Positions 690 through 28,905 are shown, numbered from the stretch's first letter. The stretch: DNA of 32,000 bases from Candidatus Saccharimonadota bacterium (GCA_020632335.1 JACKFV010000001.1:120001-152000); one strand, 5' to 3'. Translations and numbers: made by a program. The notes: generated by a model not told the origin, from the letters alone.

Positions 690-1745
690 ATGACTGAGAA
701 AAATCCGGCAAAGACCCAAGCACTACAGTCCGCCCTCCAGGCAATCGAGAAGAACTACGGGAAGGGCGCGGTGATGCGCCTGGGGGATAGTGCCGTCCAG
801 CGGGTGGAGATGGTCACCACGGGCTCCCTCAGCATAGACCTGGCACTGGGGGGCGGCGTGCCACGAGGGCGGATCATCGAGATCTACGGCCCGGAAAGTA
901 GCGGAAAGACCACGCTGTGTCTGCACATCGCCAGTGAATTCCAGAAGGCTGGGGGTACGGTGGCTTTCATCGACGCCGAGCACGCGCTGGACCCCACCTA
1001 CGCGGCCAAGGTGGGGGTCGATACCGACAACCTCCTGCTCAGCCAGCCCGATAGTGGGGAGCAAGCGCTGGACATCACCGAGGCACTGGTGCGTAGTGGC
1101 GGGGTGGATCTCATCATTGTGGATAGTGTGGCGGCGCTGACCCCGCGGGCCGAGATACAGGGCGAGATGGGCGACCACCAGATGGGCCTGCAGGCGCGAC
1201 TGATGAGCCAGGCGCTACGGAAGTTAACGGCCGTCGCCAGTAAAATGGGCACCACCATTCTCTTCGTCAACCAGATACGGATGAAGATCGGGGTGATGTT
1301 CGGCAACCCTGAGACGACCACCGGCGGGAACGCACTGAAGTTCTATAGCTCGGTGCGGATAGAGGTGCGCAAGGGCAACAAGATAGAGACCGGCACAGGA
1401 GACAACAAGGAGGTAGAGGGCAACCAGATGCGCGTGAAGGTAGTGAAGAATAAGGTGGCGCCGCCCTTCAAGACCGCGGAGGTGGATATTGTGTTCAATA
1501 AGGGGATCGACAAGGTAGCGGACGTGCTGGATAATGCGGTGCGGTTCGACGTGGTGCAAAAGGCCGGGGCCTTCTATAAATATAAGAATGAGACCATCGG
1601 CCAGGGCAAGCAGAAGGCGGGAGAATTCCTCGCTCATAACCCAGGGGTGCTGGCGGAGATCCGCGCCCAGGTGATGGACAAGGCCGGCCACGCGGTGCAT
1701 ACGGAGATAGAGCCAGGGCCAGTAGAGGCTCCTGAGAGTGAGTAA
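690..1745 (+). CDS. recA: recombinase RecA
   Basis: 351 aa. N-terminus [23 protein letters not shown], Walker [10 protein letters not shown], and [10 protein letters not shown] and [14 protein letters not shown] blocks typical of RecA. Confidence 0.97.
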
Positions 1746-1767
1746 CCCACGAGAATATAGGACAAAC

Positions 1768-1823
1768 AAAAAAACCCTGGCTGCCATTACCATGCTCATA
1801 GGAAGAACAAGGTGGCATCCGGG
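1768..1823 (-). terminator. candidate intrinsic terminator downstream of the 1838-2515 gene
   Basis: Minus strand: imperfect hairpin (CCCGGATGCCA...TGGCAGCCAGGG, 1775-1823) followed by T7 (complement of the A-run at 1768-1774). The stem has a bulge and a mismatch. Confidence 0.4.
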
Positions 1824-1837
1824 ATCACGGTAGAGGG

Positions 1838-2515
1838 TTACCAATGAAGGAAAAGGTAATAAAGACGATCTTCAGGCAAAGGCCCATTTTCGTCTATCTC
1901 TAATATATCCTCCTTCAAGAACTGGTCCATATACAATAGCAGGAAGGCGATACTACACTGGGTAGTCTCGATGTACTCCTGTGGGTACACCCGGTTTCTC
2001 TGCCCGCTCACCTGATACTCGCGGATGAACTGTATACCCGCACCTTCATTGGTGAAGTTAGGCACCTCCACATACTTCTCAGGATATGTGTCCAAGGCAC
2101 AGTACAGCTCGTCATAGTGCGGCATATAGGGCTCCTGCTCTAGACAGTACAGTAGGACATGTATACCGACACTCCTACTGGTCGCAAGAGTGAGCAACGC
2201 TTGCTCCAAGACTGCTTCCTCTTTTGCATAATCTGCTTCCGTATAGGCTTCGTCTTGATAAGAGTTTTGATACGACTGGTACAGTGCTCTTTCCTTAGCG
2301 GTCATCGGACACTGTGTGAGCGCCTTACTAAAACTCATTATGTTATCCCTTGTAATAGGTTTTCCTAGCCAATCTACCGGGAAGCTGGCCTCATTAGAAA
2401 GCACATAAGTGACCACATGCTGCGGTCCTGGTGCTACTCTGGTTTTGACACTCTGGACAAATGCCCCCACTCCTGACACGAGGAGTAAAACTAATAATAA
2501 TACTGTTTTTTTCAT
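1838..2515 (-). CDS. hypothetical secreted protein (225 aa), low-GC gene
   Basis: The ORF-track ORF 1838-2620 was trimmed to the internal ATG (complement of 2513-2515), which gives a classic signal peptide, MKKTVLLLVLLLVSGVGAFVQS. No family recognised. Hand counts of lines 2281 and 2341 give 47% and 43% GC, well below the neighbouring genes. Confidence 0.6.
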   Translation of the reverse strand: MKKTVLLLVLLLVSGVGAFVQSVKTRVAPGPQHVVTYVLSNEASFPVDWLGKPITRDNIMSFSKALTQCPMTAKERALYQSYQNSYQDEAYTEADYAKEEAVLEQALLTLATSRSVGIHVLLYCLEQEPYMPHYDELYCALDTYPEKYVEVPNFTNEGAGIQFIREYQVSGQRNRVYPQEYIETTQCSIAFLLLYMDQFLKEDILEIDENGPLPEDRLYYLFLHW

Positions 2516-2542
2516 GATAATAATTGCGTTAAAAAAATGAAG

Positions 2543-2572
2543 AAAAAAGTACCCAACATCTCGCGGTTGGGC
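2543..2572 (-). terminator. intrinsic terminator (second of two downstream of gyrA)
   Basis: Minus strand: GCCCAAC cgcgagat GTTGGGT (7-bp stem including one G-U pair) followed by ACTTTTTTCTTC. Confidence 0.55.
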
Positions 2573-2649
2573 CACCACCCTGGTGCCAAACTGGCAGCAG
2601 AGCAGTAGCACAACACGCATCTGGGCAGAACTTCCTGGTTCTCTACCGT

Positions 2650-2675
2650 AAAAGAACGTATCCCCTCAGGGATAC
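2650..2675 (-). terminator. intrinsic terminator immediately downstream of gyrA
   Basis: Minus strand: GTATCCC tgag GGGATAC (7-bp stem, 4-nt loop, 2658-2675) followed by GTTCTTTTAC. It begins 40 nt after the gyrA stop. Confidence 0.55.
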
Positions 2676-2715
2676 CCTTCTTCTACTACATTATGGTTGC
2701 TTTGTCAAGAACTCT

Positions 2716-5265
2716 CTACAGCAGCGCCTCTTGGCTCTCTTCTGTGGCATCGTCCTGCCCATCTAAGAGCAGGCTGAGCGACTGCGCGCCGTCACCACTG
2801 GCGGGCTTGAAGAGAATGACCCCACTGGCGTTACGCCCCGTGGTGCGGATATTCCGGAGTGGCAGGCGGATACTCTGGCCCTTCTTACTGGTGATGAGCA
2901 GGTCGCCCTCCATGTCCTCGCGTATGACCCGTGCGCCGATGACCACGCCCGTCTTGGGGGTTATCTTCGCGGTGACCACGCCCTTGGCCCCCCGGGCGGT
3001 CTTGCGGTATTCCTTGACCTTGGTCATCTTCCCCCGGCCCTTCTCCATGACGATCAGCAGCTTGCTCTCCCGGGTTTCTTCGTCTTCCACCGGTTGCAGC
3101 ACCTGCATCTGCACCACCGCGTCATCGTCGCTCAGGCGCATACCCCGCACCCCGGCTGCCGTACGGCCCATCTCGCGCACCTCGGATTCGTCGAAGATCA
3201 CCGCCTTACCCTGCCGGCTGCAGAGGATAATATCGTGCTCGCCACTGGTGATGGCCGTCCAGAAGAGCTTCTCGTCCTCCTTGGTATTCATGGCCTTTTT
3301 GCCCTTACGGTTGATACTCTCAAACTCGCTCATGGCACACTTCTTCACCGTGCCACCCGTCGTCGCCATGAAGATAAACCGAGCACTCTCCCCCTGCTGC
3401 AGAGCTTCTGTCCAGTTGAGGATCTCCGTCACGCTCTCGTCACCGCTCAGCTCCAACAGGTTCACGATGGGTGTCCCCTTGGCCGTCCGCGACGCCTCGG
3501 GCACCTCATAGCATGGCAAGCGAAACACCCGCCCCTCACTGGTGAAGAAGAGCAGCTCGTCGTGCGTCATGCACTGGCGGGTCTTGATGATGCGGTCATC
3601 GTCCTTGGTACTGGTGGATTTGACCCCCACGCCACCGCGCTTCTGCGTGCGGAAGGTATCGGGCGAGAGGCGCTTGATATAGCCCGTCTCGGTGAGGCTG
3701 AGCAGCATAGGCTCGTTCGGGATGGTATCTGTGGGGCGAAATTCCCCTATGCGCCCGGGGTGTACCAGCGTCCGCCGGGGGTCGCCGTACTGCTGTTTTG
3801 CGTCGGAGAGCTCGGTCTTGATGATCTCCGTCTGCTTCTTTTTATCGGCTAAGATGCCCTGCAGCTGGGTGATGAGCGCGTGTTTCTCGGCCAGTTCGTC
3901 CTCTATCTTCTGCCGCTCCAGCCCCGCCAGCGTCTGCAACCGCATCTCGAGGATAGCCCGCACCTGCAGCTCGCTCAGGCCAAACTGCTCCATGAGCGCC
4001 CCTGCGGCGGCCTCTTTCGTCTGGCTTTGCTTGATGGTAGCGATGACCGCGTCGATGTCATCCAGCGCTATTTTCAACCCCTCCAAGATGTGCGCCCGCG
4101 CCTGAGCCACCCGCAGGTCATACTCGGTACGCCGCACAATAACGACGTAACGGTGAGCGATAAACTCGGTGAGGATCTGGTGGACATTCAGCAGTCGTGG
4201 GTGGATGCCGTCTACCAGGGCGATCATGTTATAACTGAAGTTCCGCTGCATGGGCGTCAGCTTAAAGAGCTGGTTCAGGACCTTCTTGGGGAAGGATCCT
4301 TTCTTCAGCTCCATCACCACGCGTATTCCCTCGCGGTTACTCTCGTCACGCAGGGCGGTAATGGCCTCGAGGGTTTTATCCCGCACCAGGTCGCCTATCT
4401 TCTCCACCAGCTGGGCCTTATTCACCTGGTAGGGCACCTCATCGATGATGATCGCCGTGCGGCCGCCCTTCAGCTCCTCGATGTGCGTTTTTGCCCGCAT
4501 GGTCACCGCTCCGCGCCCGGTGCTCAGCGCCTTAGCGATATCTCCCCCATCGTAGATCTCCGCCGCGGTGGGGAAGTCTGGCCCCTTGATAAACGGTAGC
4601 AAGTCCGCCATGGTGGAGTCCTCGTGCTCCAGCATATAGAGCGTGGCGTCCACCACCTCCCCCAGGTTATGCGGTGGGATGTTCGTCGCCATACCCACGG
4701 CTATCCCCATGCTTCCATTCAGCAGCAGCTGCGGGATAACCGTAGGGAGGACGGTCGGCTCGTCTTTGCTGGCGTCGTAGTTGGGCCGCCAGGGCACGGT
4801 GTTTTTATCAATATCCTGCAGCATGAGCTCGGTGATGCGCTCCATACGCGCCTCGGTATACCGCATCTGCGCAGGGCTATCGCCATCTATCGAGCCGAAA
4901 TTCCCCTGCCCGTCCACCAGGGGGTAGCGGAGGCTGAAGTCCTGCGCCATACGCACCAGCGTCATATAGACTGACTGGTCGCCATGCGGGTGGAAATTCC
5001 CCAGGGTATCCCCCACCAGCTTCGCGGATTTCTTGTACTTCGCGCTCTTGCGCATACCGCTATCGTGCATCTGGTAGAGCACCCGGCGGTGCACGGGCTT
5101 GAGCCCATCACGCACGTCGGGCAGGGCACGGGCCACTATCACGCTCATTGCGTAGGAGATATACGCCTCTTGCATATCCGTGACGATGTCCTTCTGGCGG
5201 ACGCGGTCGTAGCTCTGGTCAGCACTATCGTCAAAGAGGGGGGTATCCGTCATACTGCTATACAT
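2716..5265 (-). CDS. gyrA: DNA gyrase subunit A
   Basis: 849 aa. [20 protein letters not shown], the QRDR-type block HPHGDQSVY, the active-site region [10 protein letters not shown], and C-terminal beta-pinwheel repeats. The start could instead be the ATG at 5253 (MTDTPLF). Confidence 0.97.
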
Positions 5266-7253: not shown

Positions 7254-7281
7254 TGTATAGGGATTCTCTAGCCCGTGGCAA
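7254..7281 (-). promoter_or_regulatory. candidate leaderless promoter for the 138-aa membrane protein (TTGCCA-16-TATACA-6-ATG)
   Basis: The minus strand reads TTGCCA cgggctagagaatccc TATACA ccgcgt ATG. The -35 element lies inside the pilC 3' end. Confidence 0.45.
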
Positions 7282-8452
7282 TAAGATTTTGCAGTTGGAA
7301 GATCGGCGTCATGATCGCCATAGCCATAAACACCACTATGGCCGCCACCGCCACCAGCACCACAGGTTCTATCAGCCCCGAGATATTCTGCAGCTGGGCA
7401 TCCACCTCCTGCTCGTACTGGTCCCCGGTCTTGTGGAGGATCTCTGGGATCTGCCCGCCTTGCGCGCCTACTTCTATCACCTCGGCCAAGATGGGGTCGA
7501 GGTAGGGCTGCGCGCGGAAGCTCTGGTGCATCTCTACCCCGGCCTGGACGTCGCGCTGCACCTGGCGGATGGCCTCACGGCTGACGGGACTTGGGAGGAT
7601 ACCGCTGAGGATCTCCAGCGATTTCTCCACCGGGACGCCACTGCTCAGCAGCGTGCTGAGGTTCTGTGCGATGCGCGTAGTCTCGATATTCTGCAGTACC
7701 GTCCGCACCACGGGCAGCTCTAGCAGGAACTTCCCCCAGGTCCTCCCGCCACTCTCAGAGGCCCTCCACTGGCTGAAGACCCCCCAGAGGATCAGCAACC
7801 CCAGCAGCACCGCCCACCACCACTGGGTGACGAAGGAAGACGCGGCGATCATAAACTGCGTAGCGGGAGGGAGGTCCGCGCCAAACTGCGAGAAGAGATC
7901 CTCAAACTGTGGCACCACAAAGAGCATTACCACGGCAATGGCCAGCACTATGGCGATGAGTACCGTCAGCGGATACATCAGCGCCGAGCGTACCCGGCGG
8001 TTTAGCTGGAGGGTTTTGTCGCTCTGCTGTGCTAGTGACGAGAGGCTGTCCTCTACCTTCCCGGCGTACTCCCCGGCGTAGAGCACCTTTATCTCCGCCT
8101 CTGAGAAGATCTCTGGGTACTTGGCAATGGCCTGAGAGAAGCGCATACCGCGCTCTTGCATGTCGTGCGCTACCGTCCAGAGGATGCGCTGTAGCCGCGG
8201 GTTACGGCTGCGGTCGGCCAGCATCTCTACCGCGCGCACAAACCGAACGCCGCTCCCCACCAGCAGCCGCAGCGAGCTATAGAGCTGCGCTTTCTCCTTC
8301 AGCGAGACACGGCTCTGGTTGATCAGCCAGTCGTCTACCTGAGTGAAGAGCCCGGCGCCCTGGCGGTTGGTCACGCCATAGATCACCCGGGGGTCCTTCG
8401 GCGAGGTTTCCTCGCGGGTGAAGATACGGCTGAGCGAGTCAAGAAGCGGCAT
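7268..8452 (-). CDS. pilC: type IV pilus / type II secretion platform protein (GspF/PilC family)
   Basis: 394 aa with two T2SSF-type repeats (LRLLVGSGVRFVRAVEMLA...GEYAGKVEDSL and LSTLLSSGVPVEKSLEIL...GAQGGQIPEIL) and three TM helices, ending in the family-typical PIFQLQNLI tail. Confidence 0.9.
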   Translation of the reverse strand: MPLLDSLSRIFTREETSPKDPRVIYGVTNRQGAGLFTQVDDWLINQSRVSLKEKAQLYSSLRLLVGSGVRFVRAVEMLADRSRNPRLQRILWTVAHDMQERGMRFSQAIAKYPEIFSEAEIKVLYAGEYAGKVEDSLSSLAQQSDKTLQLNRRVRSALMYPLTVLIAIVLAIAVVMLFVVPQFEDLFSQFGADLPPATQFMIAASSFVTQWWWAVLLGLLILWGVFSQWRASESGGRTWGKFLLELPVVRTVLQNIETTRIAQNLSTLLSSGVPVEKSLEILSGILPSPVSREAIRQVQRDVQAGVEMHQSFRAQPYLDPILAEVIEVGAQGGQIPEILHKTGDQYEQEVDAQLQNISGLIEPVVLVAVAAIVVFMAMAIMTPIFQLQNLIATG

Positions 8453-8454
8453 AC

Positions 8455-8964
8455 TTACTGGTAATACGCCCGGAGGGAAATCTCGAGCAGGGCAAATTCT
8501 CGGCCATCGTCCTCACGCCGCAGCGAGACATTCAGCCCGTCCATGCTGAGGAAGCGCTCGTTACTCTCTATGCTGCGGAGGAAGGGCAAGATGTTATTGC
8601 GGGGGCCCTTGACCGCAAAACTCACGATGAGGCTGTGGGCCTTGAGCTCGGTGTCATAGGTATCGCTAAAGCTCAGCTGCGTAAACGCATAGCCCGTGGC
8701 GGTAGAGATACGCTGCAGGTCACGCATGACCTGCTCTTGCTCGCGCGTGCGGGGCACCTGGGTGAGGATATTCTCTTTACTGGCCTTGATGTCCGCGATC
8801 TTCTGCTCGGTGGCGTGGAACTGCTCAAACGCCTGGGTCTGCAGCGCCTCATGCCGGGTGGCCTCGCTAGTGAGGCGGGCAATATCGCGCTGGTAGGGCA
8901 GGGTATAGCGGAAGGCGATGACCCCCAAGAGCACGAGAAGAATCAGAGGAATAAGACGGCTCAT
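8455..8964 (-). CDS. PilO-like pilus assembly protein
   Basis: 169 aa. An N-terminal TM helix starts at residue 3, followed by a coiled-coil segment and then an alpha/beta core. It lies 2 nt upstream of pilC and is joined to the upstream gene by an ATGA overlap. Assigned from architecture and position, not from a strong motif. Confidence 0.55.
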   Translation of the reverse strand: MSRLIPLILLVLLGVIAFRYTLPYQRDIARLTSEATRHEALQTQAFEQFHATEQKIADIKASKENILTQVPRTREQEQVMRDLQRISTATGYAFTQLSFSDTYDTELKAHSLIVSFAVKGPRNNILPFLRSIESNERFLSMDGLNVSLRREDDGREFALLEISLRAYYQ

Positions 8965-9599
8965 GAGCGGGGGCTAGAGAGACGAGGAGACGACGGTAGC
9001 AAAGGGCTGGGGGTATAGTCGAACTGCAGCTGGAACTGCACGCCCCCCTCCACTGCCGCCACCGGAGACGCCCCCGTACGCCGCGTGGTACTAGCAGCCT
9101 GGACGGTACTCACCACGCTGATGAAGGGATCGGCGGTGTTCTCTTGGAATTTAGAGAGTTTCTCGAGGAACTCTGCTACCGCGTTCAGGTCCGCCCCCAC
9201 CCCGGACGCCGTGATGCGCTGAGAGCTATCCGACGTGAAGTTGATGAAGAAAATGGCGTCGCTCTGCTGGCTGAGCACCGTGCTGACCACCTCGCTCCAG
9301 CGGATGCGGTCCATCTCCAGCTTCTCCAGGATGAACGCCGCAGTGATCTCCGCATTCATTTTCTCCCCCTCACGCAGGTTGAGCGTGGCGGCCTGGGTAT
9401 TACGCACCGAGTCCTGCAGCGCGCTCACCCGCGCCTCGGCCTCACGCCGCTGCTGCCCCAGGAGGAAGGTATACACCCCCAGGGCAATCAGCCCCATCAG
9501 CAGTACTATCTGCCCGAGGAGCAGCAGACCGCTCTGGCGGCGCACAGGGCGCAATGGGGCGCTCTCTGGCGGGAGGGAAGCGACGGGCAGTACAGGCAT
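8961..9599 (-). CDS. PilN-like pilus assembly protein
   Basis: About 212 aa. A short cytoplasmic N-terminus (MPVLPVASLPPE), one TM helix (LLLLGQIVLLMGLIALGVYTFLL), a coiled coil, then an extracytoplasmic domain. The start is taken at the ATG (9597-9599), one codon inside the GTG of the ORF track. Confidence 0.5.
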   Translation of the reverse strand: MPVLPVASLPPESAPLRPVRRQSGLLLLGQIVLLMGLIALGVYTFLLGQQRREAEARVSALQDSVRNTQAATLNLREGEKMNAEITAAFILEKLEMDRIRWSEVVSTVLSQQSDAIFFINFTSDSSQRITASGVGADLNAVAEFLEKLSKFQENTADPFISVVSTVQAASTTRRTGASPVAAVEGGVQFQLQFDYTPSPLLPSSPRLSSPRS

Positions 9600-9618
9600 C
9601 ACAGAGGCTATCAGCTCT

Positions 9619-22329: not shown

Positions 22330-22590
22330 CTAAAATCCGAAAAGTCTTACCATACGATTCTTGTCTTTTTTAGAAAATGTTTTTACAGACGTTTTTGGGT
22401 CTTTAGCGTAAAGATTCATTGCCTCTCGAACATTATGAGCATAATAAATCAATCTCCGATGCTCTTTTCCAAAATACCCTTTTAGTATTTCGACAGTAAC
22501 GCCTTGTACGCTTTGCTCTTGAGCTACTTTTTCAGACTTAGATGGGCCTCCAGCTCTTCTTTTGGGGTGATCATTGCTAAATGATGACAT
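22330..22590 (-). CDS. small basic hypothetical protein (86 aa) in a low-GC islet; weak resemblance to a DnaA-domain-IV-type HTH
   Basis: ORF with an ATG start. Line 22381 counts 38% GC. The segment VTVEILKGYFGKEHRRLIYYAHNVREAM loosely recalls the ...FGGRDHTTVIHA...I... helix-turn-helix of the DnaA C-terminal domain. This rests on memory only and is unverified. Confidence 0.35.
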   Translation of the reverse strand: MSSFSNDHPKRRAGGPSKSEKVAQEQSVQGVTVEILKGYFGKEHRRLIYYAHNVREAMNLYAKDPKTSVKTFSKKDKNRMVRLFGF

Positions 22591-22916: not shown

Positions 22917-25900
22917 ATGTACCGCTTCCTCCGTCGTCACCTCCCCGCGCTGTGTGTGCTTGTGCTCACGGTGGGGGTGGGCGCCACGGCCTTTGCCACC
23001 AGTGATGAGTCGCTGCTGAACTTCAGCTCCATTACCAGTGTTATCCTGGATATCCTCGTGCTGCTCTACCTCAAGACCACCGAGGTGAATGACCTGCTGA
23101 TTGGCTCGCACCTGGTGCTGGGGGAGGAGGCCTACGCAGCGATGCGGCCGCTGTGGGTGAACGCGCGTAACATCGTGAATGTGCTGACGCTGGGCTACAT
23201 GACCTACCTGGGGATGGATAATATTATCCGGGGGATACAGGGGAAGAAATTCGGTCGCTACCACCTGAAGCAGATGGTACCCAAGGCGATGTTTGGCCTG
23301 GTGGCGGCGAATTTCACGTTACTGGGCATGGAGCTGATGATCAACACCATAGACCTGGGCTACCGCGCGGTAGTGAGCATAGGGGTGGAGAGCTGGGAGA
23401 GCCAGTTTCCGCGGAATATGATCGGGGAGGTGAAAGTAGACACCACGGGCGAGGAATGCTTCACCGACTCCCCCACCTGTAAGACGCTGGAGAAGTGGTT
23501 TAATGAGCTCTACTGCCCCATAGATTCTGGCTCCGGGAATACACAGACCCCCAGCGACGACTGCTTCTTTAAGATAAAAGCTGACCAAGTGCAAGAAGAA
23601 ACCGTGGATCTCATCCCCAATATTTTCTTGCCGTGGCTCTTCACCACCAGCAATATCCACTCGGCGCCCCTGCTGAGCCAGATGCTCTCTAACCTCAACG
23701 GCTTTGCGCGGAATATCCTCTACAATACGCTCTTTATGCTGGGGTTCACCGCGTCCAACCTCTACATCATGATGGCGCTGGTGCTGCGGGTGATCTTCCT
23801 GTGGATGTTTATTATCCTCTCGCCCTTCTTTATGATGGACGTAGCGATGGACCTGGGGCTGTTTATCCGCTCTACGGGCATCATGCGGAAGTTTGTGATG
23901 TTCCTGCTGGTACCGCTGAAGATCGCCTTTACCTTCACGGTGGGCTTTGTGATGATGAAGCACATGGCGGGCTACGCCAGCGACTTCCTCGACCATACCT
24001 TTATTATCTCCTCGGTGGGGATACACGGTGAGCAGGCCTTCTCCTACCTCTGGCAGGTGATGACCATAGCGCTCTTCTGGTATACGGCGGTGTGGTGCTT
24101 TGACGACCGGCTCTCCGAGCGGATTATCAATAGCGTCTCGGCCGCGGCTCAGAGTGCCAGCAATAGCGTCTCTGAGGCCTATAGCAGCCAGGGAGATACC
24201 AACATCGACAACGCCAATGTGCAGGTAAATGGCGGTGGCCCCACACTAAATGGCTCGCCCATAGGGGACGGGTCGGCACTCGGGTTCTCTCCGCTGGACA
24301 AACTCGTGCAGGGCAACCGCAGCATAGAGAATATCTTGGCCAGTGAGCAGAGTCGCGAGCTCAATCGCTTCCTCCCGACGGAGATCGGCAAGGTGATGAG
24401 CAGCCTGCAGGGCGAGGTAAACCGCGGGCTCATCAGCCTGCCAGAGCAGCTGGAGGGCATGGCGAATGTGGGCGACGCGAGCGCTACGCAGCTGCGGAGT
24501 ATGGCTACCACGCTCGGGCAGCTGCAGCCGGAGCTCTATGATGGGCGGAAACAAAGCCGCAAAGAGCCCGTCAAACCACAAGAATACCTCGTGCAGCAGC
24601 GTCTGCTGGAGGGCGCCAGTGGCACACTGGAGCGCACCGCGGACCGCTTGGAGGCCCTGCAGAAGGCCTACGAGCAGCCCCCCACGGCCACAGACACCCT
24701 CACCCCAGAGAGGTACCAGCAGCAGAAGGAGGAGATCATGACGCAGTTCCGCAAGGAGATGTTGGTCTACCAGGCGCGTAGTGAGCAGGCTCCTGAGGGT
24801 GTGCAACGCGTACGCGTAGAGCAGTCCCCCGCTGAGGCGAGAGAGAAAATGCTCACGGCCATGCCCGTGCCCTTTGAGGACAGAGAACTCACCAAGGCAA
24901 TTACAGAGCTGCGAGAGCAGCAGTCTGCCACCGGGCAGGTCATTACTACCGCGGAGCAGAGCGCCAGTACGGCTATGGCAGATACCAAAAAATCACTCAC
25001 CGAGAAACACGACGTACTGCAAGCCAGTATGGCTAAGCTCGCCCGGCACTATGAGGCGCTGGAGGAGAAGGAAGCTGCTGTGCAAAAGGTCCTCCAGAGC
25101 CTGCAAGCGGAGATAGCAGGGCTGGAATCCCTCCCCACTGCCGAGCATACCGAGCGTCATGAGTCCACCCTGCAGGAGCTACGCGAGAAAGAGCGCTATA
25201 TCAAAGAGACCGTGCTGGAGCGGAGTAGTGCCACCAGCATCACCACCGACAAAGCGGTACTAGAGGCCATGATGCAGCAGCTCCAGGCGCAGAATGCCCT
25301 CCTCCAGCGCCAGGCCGATGCCCGCACCGGGGCCGTCACGCCCGTGCCCACTCCCCCTCAACAGCAGGACGTGACCACTCAGCAGGTCACCATCACGGGC
25401 GCTCCTGTGGCTATTTCATCCCCGAGTACCGTCACCACTGCTACCCAGAACCCGGAGGTTCGCGCGGCGCTCGAGGCAGCTACTACCGCGCTGGTGGAGG
25501 CTAAAGAAGCCTTCATAGCTCCGCTCACGCCCCCCACTCCTGCAGAGGAGACTACAGAGCCGGTGACCGCCGTGGTCCTCAACCAGCCCGCCGTGAGTGA
25601 CACCCACGCCGCCGTGCAGACCGCCATTACGAGCTCCGAGCAGCACATCGCCGAGGCGAAGAATGCCGTACAGGCCGTGACCGAACGCACGGATATGACC
25701 GCGGTGGAGAGCCGCCTCAGTGGCATACGAGAGCAGCTGGAGGCCGAGCAGGCGCAGCTGGAGGAGATCCTCACCGCGCTAGAGCAGGAGAAAATCACCG
25801 TGCTGGAGCGAGAAAATAACGACGAAACCGCCCCCGCCGTGGTGCAGATCACGCAGCTGCAGCAGGCCGCAACGGCGCAGCACGAGCGAAATACGCAGGC

Positions 25901-26966
25901 CATCAGCGCCCTACAGAACCCCGCCGCGCTGGGAGCGCTCTCCTCTGCGGTGGAGCAACTCAGCGACGCGGTAGAGAGCCAGCGCCCCGTGGTAGTGGAG
26001 GGAGAGAAAGATCCCTTTGCCACTACGGTGCCGGAGCTGAGCGTGGCCAGTGCCACCATGACGAAGACCAGCATCCCAGACCTGGAGATGCCCATTGCTC
26101 CTGTCCCCACACTGGACCTCACACCCCTCTCAGCCGAGCTGCAAGAGGCCCTCCCCAAGGCACTCACCCAGGCCAATGCTGCGCTGATCCCCTCCATAAC
26201 CAAGGCCAGTAGCACCCCCGCAAGCCAGCAAACCGCGCAGCTAGAAGCCGCTGCTAGCTCCCTCCGAGGACTTTCAGCGAATATAGCTGAGCAATACACC
26301 GCGCTGCAAGAGGAGGTAAACCCGCTGCTGGAGCGCCTCACTGCGTATGATAACGCCCCAGTGGAGCAGCAGCGAAGCCTCCCTGCCCCTACGGAAGAAG
26401 AGCGGGCTGCCGCCACCGCCAAGAAGGAGGAAGCCACCGCGCTGGCCGGCGCCTATGGGCAGGTGGAGAGCACGCTGGAGAAGCTGGAGGATGCCCTACC
26501 AAAGGCTGCCGAGCCTGCTCCCCCAGCGCCAGAAACCCCCGAACACGCCGCGGACATCGCTACCCTGGCGGCGATAAAACCCACCGAAGAGAACCTCCAG
26601 GGTGTACAGAGCCTCCTCCAGGACCTCACCACGCAAGAGGCCGAGAACGCAGCGGCGCTACAGGAGGGCATTGTACAGCTCAACCAGAGCGAGCCCTACA
26701 GCCCCACAGAGGCTGACGCCGCGAAGAACGTAGCGGATCTCACCGCTCAGCAGGAGGAAAACCAGGTGCAGCGCGACCTGCTGGAGAAGACGCAGCAGTA
26801 CATGGCCGGCGCCATAACGGGTAAGGAATTCGAGCAGATATTCGCGCAGGCCGGGGCACAGAGTACGCGCAAGTTGCTAGAGACCCTGCGCAGTGAAGGC
26901 CGCAAAACCCGGAGCAGTACTAAAGATGCCCTCCGAGAGCTGGTGCCTGTGGAGCGTAATGTATAA
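22917..26966 (+). CDS. giant hypothetical protein (1349 aa): N-terminal polytopic membrane domain plus a long coiled-coil / low-complexity tail of about 950 aa
   Basis: Signal/anchor MYRFLRRHLPALCVLVLTVGVGATAFA|TSDE and about 7 further hydrophobic helices up to about aa 395. A hydrophilic loop carries C181, C188, C200 and C216. The remainder is A/Q/E/T/L-rich and I see no Cys or Trp in it. Codon usage is host-like. No catalytic motif recognised. Confidence 0.85.
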   Translation: MYRFLRRHLPALCVLVLTVGVGATAFATSDESLLNFSSITSVILDILVLLYLKTTEVNDLLIGSHLVLGEEAYAAMRPLWVNARNIVNVLTLGYMTYLGMDNIIRGIQGKKFGRYHLKQMVPKAMFGLVAANFTLLGMELMINTIDLGYRAVVSIGVESWESQFPRNMIGEVKVDTTGEECFTDSPTCKTLEKWFNELYCPIDSGSGNTQTPSDDCFFKIKADQVQEETVDLIPNIFLPWLFTTSNIHSAPLLSQMLSNLNGFARNILYNTLFMLGFTASNLYIMMALVLRVIFLWMFIILSPFFMMDVAMDLGLFIRSTGIMRKFVMFLLVPLKIAFTFTVGFVMMKHMAGYASDFLDHTFIISSVGIHGEQAFSYLWQVMTIALFWYTAVWCFDDRLSERIINSVSAAAQSASNSVSEAYSSQGDTNIDNANVQVNGGGPTLNGSPIGDGSALGFSPLDKLVQGNRSIENILASEQSRELNRFLPTEIGKVMSSLQGEVNRGLISLPEQLEGMANVGDASATQLRSMATTLGQLQPELYDGRKQSRKEPVKPQEYLVQQRLLEGASGTLERTADRLEALQKAYEQPPTATDTLTPERYQQQKEEIMTQFRKEMLVYQARSEQAPEGVQRVRVEQSPAEAREKMLTAMPVPFEDRELTKAITELREQQSATGQVITTAEQSASTAMADTKKSLTEKHDVLQASMAKLARHYEALEEKEAAVQKVLQSLQAEIAGLESLPTAEHTERHESTLQELREKERYIKETVLERSSATSITTDKAVLEAMMQQLQAQNALLQRQADARTGAVTPVPTPPQQQDVTTQQVTITGAPVAISSPSTVTTATQNPEVRAALEAATTALVEAKEAFIAPLTPPTPAEETTEPVTAVVLNQPAVSDTHAAVQTAITSSEQHIAEAKNAVQAVTERTDMTAVESRLSGIREQLEAEQAQLEEILTALEQEKITVLERENNDETAPAVVQITQLQQAATAQHERNTQAISALQNPAALGALSSAVEQLSDAVESQRPVVVEGEKDPFATTVPELSVASATMTKTSIPDLEMPIAPVPTLDLTPLSAELQEALPKALTQANAALIPSITKASSTPASQQTAQLEAAASSLRGLSANIAEQYTALQEEVNPLLERLTAYDNAPVEQQRSLPAPTEEERAAATAKKEEATALAGAYGQVESTLEKLEDALPKAAEPAPPAPETPEHAADIATLAAIKPTEENLQGVQSLLQDLTTQEAENAAALQEGIVQLNQSEPYSPTEADAAKNVADLTAQQEENQVQRDLLEKTQQYMAGAITGKEFEQIFAQAGAQSTRKLLETLRSEGRKTRSSTKDALRELVPVERNV

Positions 26967-26976
26967 GGCTCTCGGC

Positions 26977-27005
26977 TTGCCAATAGCCAGTCTCCCCGGT
27001 AATAT
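26977..27005 (+). promoter_or_regulatory. candidate leaderless promoter for the 471-aa gene (TTGCCA-17-TAATAT-6-ATG)
   Basis: TTGCCA atagccagtctccccgg TAATAT gccagc ATG (27012), starting 11 nt after the stop of the giant gene. Confidence 0.5.
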
Positions 27006-27011
27006 GCCAGC

Positions 27012-28427
27012 ATGCAGTACCTGTGGCGCTGTCATCGCTCTGGCTCCCGGCGGAGTATTGCCCGGCGACGACGGCTGGAGGACCTGACCGACCACGAGAA
27101 GGAGTCGTTGGGCCTGGATATGCTGGAGCAGGAGACCTTTGCCCATGAGGGGCGCACGCTCTCGCTGGACACCTGCATCGAGGACCTGGCGCTCCTCATA
27201 CCGGAGGAAACCACGCCCCTGGGGCAGCATGATGAGCTCTATCAGTGGGGGGATAATGAGGAGGTGCGGGCGCTCTTCACGGCGGTGGCGCTGCACATAG
27301 AGGCGGCTCCGATTAGCCCCCTGCGCGAGCAGATTATGCAGATTCTCCAGCGGCTGGAGTCCCGCTCGGGTTACCCGCGGTCACTGGCGCTGAGGGCCTC
27401 TGACCTGCAGCAACTGCTTGACCACCTCCGAGAAATACAAAGGACGAGCACCTCTCTAGACAGAAAAAGCCAGCTGGCTCGGGAGCTCCTAGGCCACCGA
27501 TGGGAGAGCACGGGGCCAGGGGCATTCTATAATACCCTGCCGAATCAGAGAAGCGCTCTGCGGCATATTGCGGCCAAGGCCAGTGCGCAGCTCTTTAATA
27601 TGGATCCGCAGCCACCCCCCACAGAGCTCCTCCCTCCTCCGACAGGGGATATCACCTCGCTGGTCACCCAGCTCCTCGCGCTGTACGACCGCATAGAAGA
27701 CATCATTGCGGCTATTTTTCACTTTGGTCAGGCCGATACGCAGCTGCAGCATGCTGTATGGCATCGTATAGAGCAGCTCCTCTCTGCACCAGACCACCAG
27801 GCAGTAACGTCTGAAAAGTGGCTCCTGCAGGATATACTCCCCCCCCTGATGGGCACCGACCATCCCCTGCTCCGTGCAGCAGGTTCCAGTACAAGCCCCT
27901 GGACTCTCGGCGCCCTGATAGCCGGCACACAGACCTCCACCAATGCGGGACAGCTCTTGGTCACCGAAGGGAGCCTCCCCGGGTATCAGGCCTGGTGTTA
28001 TGCCCGAGAGAATCCTGTACCGCATGCGCTGCAGGGGTGCCACCTGGTCTGGGCAGCCGGTACACTCTTGTATCCGCAGATACCGTATCTCTTTGGCATA
28101 GCACTCCCCAAAGCAAGCCCCCACACACACCACAGCCTCGATGGCCTCGTGCACCTGCTGCTCACCCACACAGCAGAAGAGGAATATGCGCTTCTCTCTT
28201 TCTCTACCGGTATGAGCGTAGACCATGCCCTCCTCCACATACAACCATCGGAGCAAACTCTTACCGTCATCACTCCTGCTGCGGAGGGGCAGCTGCATAA
28301 GGAGCTCTTTGTACCGTGGGCTGCACTCCTGGCAATGGAAGTACCCCTCACGCTCCAGATAGCACGATGGCACCCTGATGTACTCGAGACCATTCCCCAA
28401 GATCAGAACGGGGTACTACCTTCTTGA
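27012..28427 (+). CDS. hypothetical soluble protein (471 aa), no recognisable domain
   Basis: Long ORF with host-like codon usage (G/C-ending codons plus the frequent ATA seen in recA and elsewhere). It has promoter support at the ATG. The N-terminus is basic (RCHRSGSRRSIARRRR) and is followed by an acidic segment. No TM helices. The 303-aa ORF on the opposite strand is Cys/Arg-rich and looks like a shadow. Confidence 0.7.
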   Translation: MQYLWRCHRSGSRRSIARRRRLEDLTDHEKESLGLDMLEQETFAHEGRTLSLDTCIEDLALLIPEETTPLGQHDELYQWGDNEEVRALFTAVALHIEAAPISPLREQIMQILQRLESRSGYPRSLALRASDLQQLLDHLREIQRTSTSLDRKSQLARELLGHRWESTGPGAFYNTLPNQRSALRHIAAKASAQLFNMDPQPPPTELLPPPTGDITSLVTQLLALYDRIEDIIAAIFHFGQADTQLQHAVWHRIEQLLSAPDHQAVTSEKWLLQDILPPLMGTDHPLLRAAGSSTSPWTLGALIAGTQTSTNAGQLLVTEGSLPGYQAWCYARENPVPHALQGCHLVWAAGTLLYPQIPYLFGIALPKASPHTHHSLDGLVHLLLTHTAEEEYALLSFSTGMSVDHALLHIQPSEQTLTVITPAAEGQLHKELFVPWAALLAMEVPLTLQIARWHPDVLETIPQDQNGVLPS

Positions 28428-28481: not shown

Positions 28482-28817
28482 TTATGAAATTGTTTCAAAA
28501 TCCTCCAATGGATATACATCAAAAGCAACCTCTTCATAAGGGTGTGTTTCCTTCATCTTTGACACAACTTCTCTTAGAATCTTTCTCTCTACTACGACTT
28601 CTATTCTCTCCTCTTCTACTGTTTCCTGTTTGCCAGATTCACCAATATTTGGAGTAGAGCATTCATTACCACGGAAACGTCCAAAGCCTCTTGACGAAAA
28701 CGAGCAAAAATCATAATGGCCTATAACCCCTGCTCCGGCGTCACCGAGAGCTTCTCTCACTAGGTCGGCATAAGGAACAGGAGTGAAAACGACAAGTTTA
28801 ACTCTAGAAGAAAGCAT
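28482..28817 (-). CDS. COG3323 / NIF3(YqfO)-insert-like PII-fold protein (111 aa), low-GC gene
   Basis: KLVVFTPVPYADLVREALGDAGAGVIGHYDFCSF...GRFRGNE...PNIGESGK...EERIEVVV...ETHPYEEVAFDVYPLE matches, from memory, the pattern of stand-alone YqfO-insert homologues. The start was trimmed from 28877 to the ATG at 28817 because the extension is merely the translated tRNA-Pro. Lines 28482-28541 and 28561-28620 count 32% and 38% GC. Confidence 0.75.
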   Translation of the reverse strand: MLSSRVKLVVFTPVPYADLVREALGDAGAGVIGHYDFCSFSSRGFGRFRGNECSTPNIGESGKQETVEEERIEVVVERKILREVVSKMKETHPYEEVAFDVYPLEDFETIS

Positions 28818-28828
28818 ATTGAATATCT

Positions 28829-28905
28829 TGGTCGGGGTAGCAGGACTCGAACCTGCGGCCTCATGCTCCCAAAGCATGCACTCTAGCCAACTGAGCTATA
28901 CCCCG
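28829..28905 (-). tRNA. tRNA-Pro, anticodon TGG, 3'-CCA encoded
   Basis: Hand-folded from the reverse complement: CGGGGTA TA GCTC AGTTGGCTA GAGT G CATGC TTTGGGA GCATG AGGCC GCAGG TTCGAGT CCTGC TACCCCG A CCA. Confidence 0.92.

Follow-up and report, generated by a model that had tools for sequence, protein, structure and literature searches.

We used exhaustive profile searches, structure prediction and comparison of gene neighbourhoods to characterize the largest gene in a 32,000-nucleotide stretch of DNA from Candidatus Saccharimonadota bacterium (GCA_020632335.1, JACKFV010000001.1:120001-152000), called the window below, whose host we take to be a monoderm bacterium of the candidate phyla radiation. 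The gene (22917..26966, + strand) has an ATG start and an intact frame and encodes a protein of 1349 residues, in which a polytopic membrane domain is followed by a hydrophilic tail of about 950 residues. Alignments place the membrane domain in a large membrane-protein family, as yet without a name, of the bacterial class concerned. By analogy, and with a tentative confidence that falls a little short of an even chance, we read the protein as a divergent extended VirB6-like membrane protein, in which a VirB6-type platform or protochannel domain would be joined to a cytoplasmic scaffold tail acting together with the product of the downstream gene, c12.

VirB6, a core membrane subunit of type IV secretion systems (T4SSs), has so far not been found in the class of the Peribacteria, the Peregrinibacteria and the 'vampire' predators Absconditicoccus and Vampirococcus; we take the GTDB class Gracilibacteria to include Peribacteria, Peregrinibacteria and Absconditabacteria. 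A recent survey reported that VirB4 is present in the class Gracilibacteria and that VirB6 is 'scarce or absent', 'suggesting extreme sequence divergence', with the VirB3 and TrsD homologues of the class not located beside virB4 (PMC12102498). The missing VirB6 together with the dispersed VirB3 and TrsD lead one to expect a dispersed, unrecognised VirB6 in Gracilibacteria. The main value of the present gene is therefore as a candidate for the VirB6 reported missing from the class, and as an entry to an unannotated conserved gene cluster.

The membrane domain and its family

The membrane domain (residues 28-395; 22998..24101, + strand) defines the family. Residues 1-420 served as the query of an exhaustive HMMER scan through 1.84 billion cluster representatives, which returned 419 of them at E <= 1e-3, 130 at E <= 1e-10 and 40 at E <= 1e-30; the absence of homologues that the preliminary description of this DNA had considered as a sign of an annotation artefact is thus not what we found. 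The closest relative (P0002) has 1351 residues and is 74% identical to the window's protein, the second (P0003) has 821 residues and is 35% identical, and the remaining members share 21-33% identity with it and are mostly 650-900 residues long. The few named members come from Peribacteria, Peregrinibacteria and Candidatus Absconditicoccus praedator, and the standard genetic code is used at every family locus except that of Absconditicoccus (code 25). W80, R84, R291, W296, P303, P333 and W388 are invariant across the family alignments and C181 and C200 are nearly so; the window's protein retains every residue that is invariant in the family.

No curated model covers this family, and its members have so far been labelled 'hypothetical'. 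The window's protein gave no significant family in Pfam, NCBIfam, PHROGs or the PDB sequences, and neither did scans of it, of 57 relatives and of nine neighbour proteins against Pfam, NCBIfam and PHROGs. PDB sequence searches with the N-terminal domain and with the family profile returned nothing relevant, the profile yielding only low-complexity tail noise, for instance calmodulin at E 0.01. A word-seeded homology search with the N-terminal domain alone gave zero matches, not even the protein itself, and 80 genome loci around cysS homologues contained no relative of the protein or of c12. The earlier statement that the protein has no recognisable family therefore stands for the curated libraries but not overall, as about 419 uncharacterised homologous representatives exist.

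Residues 1-27 (22917..22997, + strand), with a positive N-terminus, a hydrophobic core and an A-F-A|T motif, have the hydropathy of a signal peptide and are probably cleaved off. A27, the end of the A-x-A motif, is kept in at least 90% of the members, and the N-terminus of the family carries a net charge of +2.6. Seven hydrophobic segments are seen within residues 8-395 by hydropathy (about 8-30, 32-54, 82-104, 122-152, 265-310, 326-350 and 375-395). The large loop of residues 153-264 (23373..23708, + strand) contains C181, C188, C200 and C216, which with C13 and C394 are the only cysteines of the protein, and no Trp occurs beyond residue 393. The number of cysteines in this loop is even (2, 4 or 6) in 96 of 96 aligned members and never odd. 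Such even counts are a disulfide signature, which argues that the loop, acidic with a net charge of -6, is probably extracytoplasmic. Across the family the density of Lys plus Arg is 0.30 at the N-terminus, 0.06 in loops 28-35 and 59-81, 0.13 in loop 105-121, 0.11 in loop 311-325, 0.04 in loop 351-374 and 0.11 in the stretch past the last span. The predicted topology is self-consistent: a cleaved signal peptide, an outside N-terminus, five spans with the big outer loop separating the second from the third, and a tail in the cytoplasm. The tail is placed there because the loop charges and the disulfide-type loop make the last span run inward. The hydrophobic helix at residues 36-58 would be embedded in the bilayer only in part, or not at all. 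A signal peptide or anchor in residues 1-27 (AFA|TSDE), roughly seven hydrophobic helices and a hydrophilic loop with these four cysteines had all been noticed in the preliminary description, and they are borne out here.

AlphaFold2, run on residues 1-425 with a 96-sequence alignment, gave an all-helical membrane domain with unusually long helices of 33-45 residues (predicted local distance difference test, pLDDT, 84.7; predicted template-modelling score 0.82).

Evidence for and against a VirB6-class protein

One line of evidence for VirB6 is structural. When this model was searched with Foldseek against 350,542 PDB chains, the best match was TrwI/VirB6 of R388 (7o3v_G; E 0.2, probability 0.80, template-modelling (TM) scores 0.24 and 0.36), followed by DotA (PDB 9NGY; E 0.7, probability 0.16), with other TrwI chains at ranks 6 and 8. 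A full-length AlphaFold2 model (pLDDT 82.3) of a typical family member, P0151, which is about 21-22% identical to the window's protein, again placed 7o3v_G first and further VirB6 chains at ranks 4, 9, 18 and 22 (E 0.9-2.8, TM-score 0.34). The modelled resemblance to TrwI/VirB6 is thus reproducible but lies in the sub-significant twilight zone. Other properties point the same way. VirB6 proteins are known to have more predicted than real membrane helices, the VirB6 homologues of the MPF_FA group have 700-900 residues and unstructured domains, and an 'extended VirB6' is defined as a VirB6-type hydrophobic domain with one or more large hydrophilic C-proximal domains (PMC12857230). At the sequence level the signals are weak and sporadic, and all of them lie in the direction of conjugation or T4SSs: a precomputed PF19590 (TrbL_3) tag on P0151 and P0152, NCBIfam NF045848 ('MMCAP2_0566 family conjugal transfer protein') in two of 57 members (best E 8e-4, under the curated cut-off), and, in three members, N-terminal TrbC/VirB2 matches of a kind also seen with authentic VirB6. 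A type IV pilus platform of the PilC type (T2SSF) was also considered and rejected, the protein giving no match to it and the window's true pilC (7268-8452) matching at 7e-47.

The same data bear on whether the protein could instead be a solute transporter or permease with a regulatory tail. The domain is polytopic and all-helical, and R84 and R291 are conserved charged residues in or beside hydrophobic helices, as such a protein might have. We nevertheless consider this quite improbable, given that no transporter family of Pfam or NCBIfam was found among 57 members, that transporter and channel chains appear only low in both Foldseek lists (probability <=0.08), and that helices of 33-45 residues are atypical of permeases.

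A number of results weigh against a VirB6 identity. None of the Foldseek scores is significant: the top matches have E-values of 0.2-0.9, TM-scores of 0.24-0.36 and a root-mean-square deviation of about 13 Å. The TrbL/VirB6 model PF04610 had no match in the protein, in its N-terminal domain or in 57 relatives; a HMMER comparison of the N-terminal part with Pfam, which the preliminary description had proposed with this very family in mind, matched neither TrbL nor any other Pfam family, and the 57 members gave no consistent Pfam match at E <= 0.1, PF04610 included. Direct hmmscan failed to recover the TrbL_3 tag, which is also absent from the window's protein, and the MMCAP2_0566 match was found in none of 10 further members and not in the window's protein. 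Profile-profile comparison by hhalign of the family with VirB6 of pTiC58, PrgH of pCF10, the Tn916-type Orf15 on pCF10 and a 64-sequence VirB6 profile gave probabilities below 2%. The predicted topology leaves helix 36-58 unplaced and the N-terminal end ambiguous. The window proteins include no VirB4, VirD4, relaxase or T4SS pilin, just as had been stated of the surroundings before. Among the gene neighbourhoods described below, VirB4 lies within 10 kb in only one of 24 places, which is no evidence by itself, as we estimate a chance of 25-30% of meeting at least one such case in genomes of about 1.3 Mb; the recurrent partner genes there have no Pfam domain, no T4SS domain and no conserved Walker A motif.

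Some of these negatives carry less weight than they seem to. In the same hhalign set-up the VirB6 profile reached only 5.5% with PrgH and 0.2% with Orf15, and PrgH reached 0.1% with Orf15. Accepted VirB6 homologues thus cannot be linked to each other in this way, and the negative hhalign result for the family is uninformative. Likewise, PF04610 scores 57 bits with the pTiC58 VirB6, 29 bits with PrgH and 17.9 bits with Orf15, the last being below the cut-off, so failure of this hidden Markov model (HMM) is normal for the extended-VirB6 group. Overall, the evidence for VirB6-likeness is convergent but weak, and it is on this footing that we infer homology and a role in secretion. The analogy with VirB6/TrbL/TcpH-type subunits drawn in the preliminary description survives as the best-supported lead, with the top structural match obtained twice, the topology and the extended tail on its side; the AlphaFold and Foldseek analysis foreseen there gave a confident model with TrwI/VirB6 on top, but the scores are sub-significant and no T4SS gene is adjacent.

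The gene neighbourhoods also lend themselves to a different explanation. We compared 24 places that encode a member, namely the window and 23 loci, some of them duplicates or short fragments. Typically the genes lie on one strand in the order c1, c4/c7/c11, family gene, c2, c5, where c1 encodes about 175 residues with two transmembrane helices, c4/c7/c11 are highly charged proteins of 550-940 residues with a transmembrane segment, c2 is a soluble protein of 1230-1850 residues, and c5 is a giant secreted protein whose longest examples reach at least 3300 residues. This cluster, complete or incomplete, occurs at about 16 of the 24 places. The family could have nothing to do with type IV secretion and instead supply a membrane subunit, peculiar to the class, to a new envelope apparatus built with c1, c4/c7/c11, c2 and c5. 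Such a subunit might, for instance, hold giant proteins of host attachment in place or export them, and the likeness to VirB6 would then reflect convergence among helical membrane proteins. The conserved cluster, its partners without Pfam domain or Walker A motif, the near absence of VirB4 from the neighbourhoods and the sub-significant level of every VirB6 similarity score all favour this explanation, and predatory relatives characteristically have giant surface proteins (PMC8080830). Yet for each of two divergent members the best structural match among 350,542 chains is of the VirB6 class, topology and architecture likewise fit VirB6, and T4SS genes are known to be dispersed in the class (PMC12102498). 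Furthermore, HMMs of c1, c4, c7, c11, c2, c5 and c20 matched nothing in the window or in the tail of its protein, and the clade of the window's protein lacks c1, c4, c2 and c5 nearby, so these genes are not strictly required by the membrane domain. We regard the unrelated apparatus, the main rival, as a real possibility, albeit on the unlikely side.

Several further observations were made at these loci. The unannotated cluster is found at L086/L087 (6283-16256), L093, L096-L100 and L107. At L107, in a 1.3-Mb genome, a FATA-type VirB4 (PrgJ, 26% identity, E 4e-38) is encoded at a distance of 6 kb from the family cluster; its gene (1440-3809, - strand) encodes DUF87, AAA_10 and P-loop_TraG domains and a Pro/Thr/Ala-rich N-terminal extension of about 230 residues, and a P-type cation ATPase gene stands between it and the cluster. 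In Absconditicoccus (L088, 7597-14403; CP054059) there are apparently three tandem paralogues of 791, 619 and 847 residues, the paralogy of the flanking genes being judged by eye from a common R-x-x-V-L-W...S-P motif, and a 4169-residue FG-GAP giant protein is encoded upstream of them. Several typical loci have a PilT-type ATPase-like gene, read by eye, about 9 kb upstream of the family gene. A link of the family to these PilT-like genes, or to the DnaE and sugar-nucleotidyltransferase genes upstream in typical loci, whose identities were likewise read by eye, was rejected as probably mere synteny.

The tail, the partner gene and the window

The tail (residues 396-1349; 24102..26963, + strand) is specific to the clade and, by the loop charges and the disulfide-type loop, is predicted to be cytoplasmic. 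The last 955 residues (395-1349) contain neither Cys nor Trp and are rich in Ala, Glu, Leu, Thr and Gln. Heptad-like windows of 28 residues number 44 in the tail, compared with 1.8 +/- 3.7 in 300 shuffles (maximum 22), and periodicity at 3.5-3.6 residues has z = 4.7. The scan against shuffles locates heptad-like segments at residues 699-739 (25011..25133, + strand), 891-964 (25587..25808, + strand) and 1103-1133 (26223..26315, + strand), the first of which lies inside a weak match to the Pfam coiled-coil family DUF7491 (residues 654-737, E 0.0038, below the cut-off). Pro-rich linkers occur at about 803-820, 864-883, 1053-1070 and 1192-1213. As the heptad stretches are short and have such linkers between them, the tail is better described as a chain of amphipathic helices than as one coiled coil. 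The Cys- and Trp-free character from about residue 400, the Ala/Gln/Glu/Thr/Leu-rich composition with heptad-like runs and the linkers that interrupt them agree with what had been noticed in the preliminary description. No similarity was found by jackhmmer between this tail and those of other family members, which measure 220-450 residues as opposed to about 950 in the clade. In P0151 (L086, 10001-12304), for instance, tail residues of about 490-585 and 630-760 form two helical domains in the AlphaFold2 model (pLDDT 93-97), joined by a disordered Pro/Ala-rich linker and unrelated to the tail studied here. The possibility that the tail arose by fusion with a c2- or c4-like protein was dropped, since the HMMs of the neighbour cluster match nothing in it.

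The window's protein and P0002 form a divergent clade within the family, and their comparison is informative because the two loci differ in GC content (60% in the window and 44% at the P0002 locus). Over residues 51-400 the membrane domains are about 78% identical. The tails, in contrast, are only about 28% identical, yet they are collinear and almost gap-free, of similar length (949 and 961 residues) and both without Cys or Trp (tblastn E 3e-44). Ala makes up 14.4% and Asn 3.2% of the window's tail, compared with 10.1% and 7.2% in P0002, a difference that fits the GC contents of the loci. With the sequence divergent and the length and character kept, selection acts on length and physical character and not on sequence, an evolutionary pattern typical of flexible scaffold or spacer regions. 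A merely lineage-specific expansion, as the preliminary description had allowed for, agrees with the clade-specific and fast-evolving nature of the tail, but not with its collinearity and kept length in two organisms whose loci lie 15 GC points apart. The low complexity and fast evolution could also be taken to indicate an annotation artefact or a decaying gene, with the tail as non-functional read-through. We give this practically no credence: the 1349-codon frame is intact with host-like codons, all family-invariant residues are retained, and the orthologue in its AT-richer locus keeps both an equally long collinear tail and the downstream partner. The gene is real, resident and conserved.

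This partner, c12 (27012..28427, + strand), encodes a soluble protein of 471 residues and starts only 45 nt past the stop codon of the large gene, with which it is thus probably co-transcribed. A homologue of about 484 residues (31% identity) is encoded directly downstream of the orthologue (L081/L082). The domain fusion and the neighbour gene, whose conservation in relatives had been raised as a question earlier, are therefore both kept at the P0002 locus, the fusion being clade-specific. The c12 protein has no significant match in Pfam, NCBIfam or the PDB, and neither a signal peptide nor a transmembrane-like segment. The GC content at third codon positions (GC3) of c12 is 0.67 and its codon-adaptation score 0.54, both lower than in the housekeeping genes and in the large gene. 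A sigma-70-like site at 26977-27005 stands immediately upstream, so c12 may have its own promoter. On the contig of the orthologue, DUF2958 and resolvase genes (L081, 9362-11239) follow the gene pair at a distance of about 4 kb, which hints at a mobile element there that is absent from the window.

The soluble nature of c12 also bears on the alternative of a membrane-tethered surface fibril, in which the tail would lie outside the cell as part of a fibrous coat or adhesin and the membrane domain would be a mere anchor. A long, helix-rich, Pro/Thr-linked and Cys-free tail, the ambiguous N-terminal topology and the fibrous surfaces of relatives, which are made of giant proteins (PMC8080830), could be accommodated by such a model. 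It is however disfavoured by the loop charges and the disulfide-type loop, which place the tail in the cytoplasm, by the lack of any cell-wall-binding, Ig-like or sorting domain of Pfam in the tail, and by the co-conservation of a partner without signal peptide or transmembrane segment. A mere anchor would also not need a 400-residue domain with invariant Trp, Arg and Pro across hundreds of relatives. The surface fibril, which the preliminary description had put on a par with the channel analogy, is thus very unlikely.

Under the extended VirB6-like reading, the following mechanism can be proposed. After cleavage of the signal peptide the N-terminus would lie outside the cell. The membrane would be crossed by about five helices, the disulfide-stabilised loop of about 110 residues between spans 2 and 3 would face outward, probably together with the extra hydrophobic helix, and the 950-residue C-terminal tail would stay in the cytoplasm. 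By analogy with TrwI/VirB6, DotA and Orf15/ConG/TcpH, copies of the membrane domain may assemble into an oligomer that forms the central platform, or protochannel, of a T4SS-derived envelope machine, and the flexible helix-rich tail and soluble c12 would provide a scaffold in the cytoplasm to which substrates or further components of the machine are recruited. The family would in this way fill the VirB6 gap reported for the GTDB class Gracilibacteria. A bolder version, which we consider rather doubtful, is that the family is the 'missing' Gracilibacteria VirB6 with its platform uncoupled, in these epibiotic or predatory hosts, from a conjugation-type operon, a secretion core repurposed to mount or feed giant surface proteins for host attack. 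Typical members would then be wired to the two-helix membrane protein, the charged membrane protein, the cytoplasmic protein of 1200-1850 residues and the giant secreted protein, and the Peribacteria clade would instead have its 950-residue cytoplasmic scaffold tail and dedicated partner.

If the family is indeed VirB6, the parts list of the machine would be complete for the class, about 400 'hypothetical' sequence clusters would gain a name, and the unannotated partner genes, including giant surface proteins, would become a candidate host-interaction module. T4SS genes are essential for the epibiotic growth of Candidatus Southlakia epibionticum ML1 (Saccharimonadia), the sole genetically tractable Patescibacterium (cited in PMC12102498). 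If the family is unrelated to VirB6, it is still a widespread and strongly conserved membrane family without a Pfam or NCBIfam model. Either way, the alignment, the seven invariant Trp, Arg and Pro residues (W80, R84, R291, W296, P303, P333 and W388) and the paired cysteines offer targets for mutagenesis in cultivable relatives.

As to the setting, the 1349-residue frame is the longest in an open reading frame (ORF) survey of the window, rpoB, for comparison, having 1183 residues, as expected from the description of the gene as the largest of the window. An identical protein (P0001) is listed at NCBI under the name 'hypothetical protein H6771_00680 [Candidatus Peribacteria bacterium]', encoded on a contig of 630,865 bp, and the nearest CysS in the species-level genome set is only 49% identical and comes from another Peribacteria genome. 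The membrane domain has a GC3 of 0.81 and the tail one of 0.74, compared with 0.77-0.81 in the housekeeping genes, and the codon-adaptation score of the gene is 0.63-0.71, compared with 0.65-0.72. The surrounding genes include recA, gyrA, dnaB, pilC/pilO, an rRNA methyltransferase gene, an ABC transporter gene, rpoB, cysS, tsf and pnp. Codon usage is thus host-like, and with the housekeeping neighbours it supports the earlier view of a resident function rather than recent cargo. The pair that the gene forms with c12, although itself host-like in codon usage, is flanked by two low-GC islands of foreign-looking DNA. One, directly upstream (22330-22590, - strand; GC 37%, GC3 0.28), holds an 86-residue basic ORF without a match in Pfam, PHROGs or the PDB. 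The other (28482-28877, - strand; GC 43%, GC3 0.33 against about 0.78 for the host) is a 131-residue ORF of very atypical composition, whose residues 25-126 match only the inserted middle domain of NIF3-related proteins (PDB 2gx8, residues 161-262 of 397, E 1.5e-30) and whose 5' end overlaps a tRNA-Pro gene (28829-28905). It looks like a stand-alone or fragmentary NIF3 insert domain that was horizontally acquired beside tRNA genes. Elsewhere in the window, a type IV pilus block (7268-9602, - strand) consists of pilC (T2SSF, E 7e-47), a pilO-like gene and an unannotated 213-residue ORF that could be pilN.

Comparison with known systems

The closest structural parallel is TrwI/VirB6 of R388 (PDB 7O3V, 8RT9, 8RTD), the top match for two family members, likewise all-helical with long hydrophobic helices. 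The VirB6 of Agrobacterium tumefaciens was reportedly described by Jakubowski et al. in 2004 as having its N-terminus outside, its C-terminus inside and five spans, the second and third of which are joined by a large outer loop, and the predicted topology of the family is the same. Both also show a surplus of hydrophobic helices over the simple span count and a weak TrbC-like signal at the N-terminus. On the other hand, the window's protein has no significant sequence or profile similarity to TrwI/VirB6, its membrane domain has about 400 residues compared with about 300, it has paired cysteines in the loop and a 950-residue tail, and its gene lies outside any virB operon.

With the extended VirB6 proteins of the MPF_FA group (Orf15 of Tn916, ConG of ICEBs1 and TcpH of pCW3) the protein shares its general plan, a polytopic domain at the N-terminus and then a large C-terminal region that is hydrophilic and in part unstructured. 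Its division into 400 and 950 residues, like the 650-900 residues of its relatives, fits an architecture of at least 700 residues, which is no proof of homology. It differs from them in an hhalign probability with Orf15 below 1%, in a length of 1349 residues that exceeds their usual size, and in an unrelated tail. The genes of Orf15, ConG and TcpH adjoin virB4, virB1 and virB8 in mobile elements, whereas this gene is chromosomal and stands among housekeeping genes. Rickettsiales carry tandem extended-VirB6 genes, and the apparent tandem paralogues in Absconditicoccus are comparable to these.

DotA, a protochannel subunit of the Legionella Dot/Icm system, is of the VirB6 class, large and with extra domains (2025 FEMS review, PMC12857230), and it is the second-best Foldseek match to the model (9NGY). 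This match is weak (E 0.7, probability 0.16) and comes without sequence similarity, and DotA partners IcmX/VirB5 in a diderm machine. Finally, the MPF_FATA-like T4SS of Patescibacteria (Quinonero-Coronel et al. 2025) differs in that its VirB6 homologues are found by VirB6/PrgH HMMs and lie mostly beside virB4, whereas the present family is invisible to these HMMs and sits in a different conserved cluster. The two nevertheless belong to the same phylum; the described system is chromosomal and without a relaxase, its Gracilibacteria components are dispersed with VirB6 undetected, and one family genome has a FATA-type VirB4 only 6 kb away.

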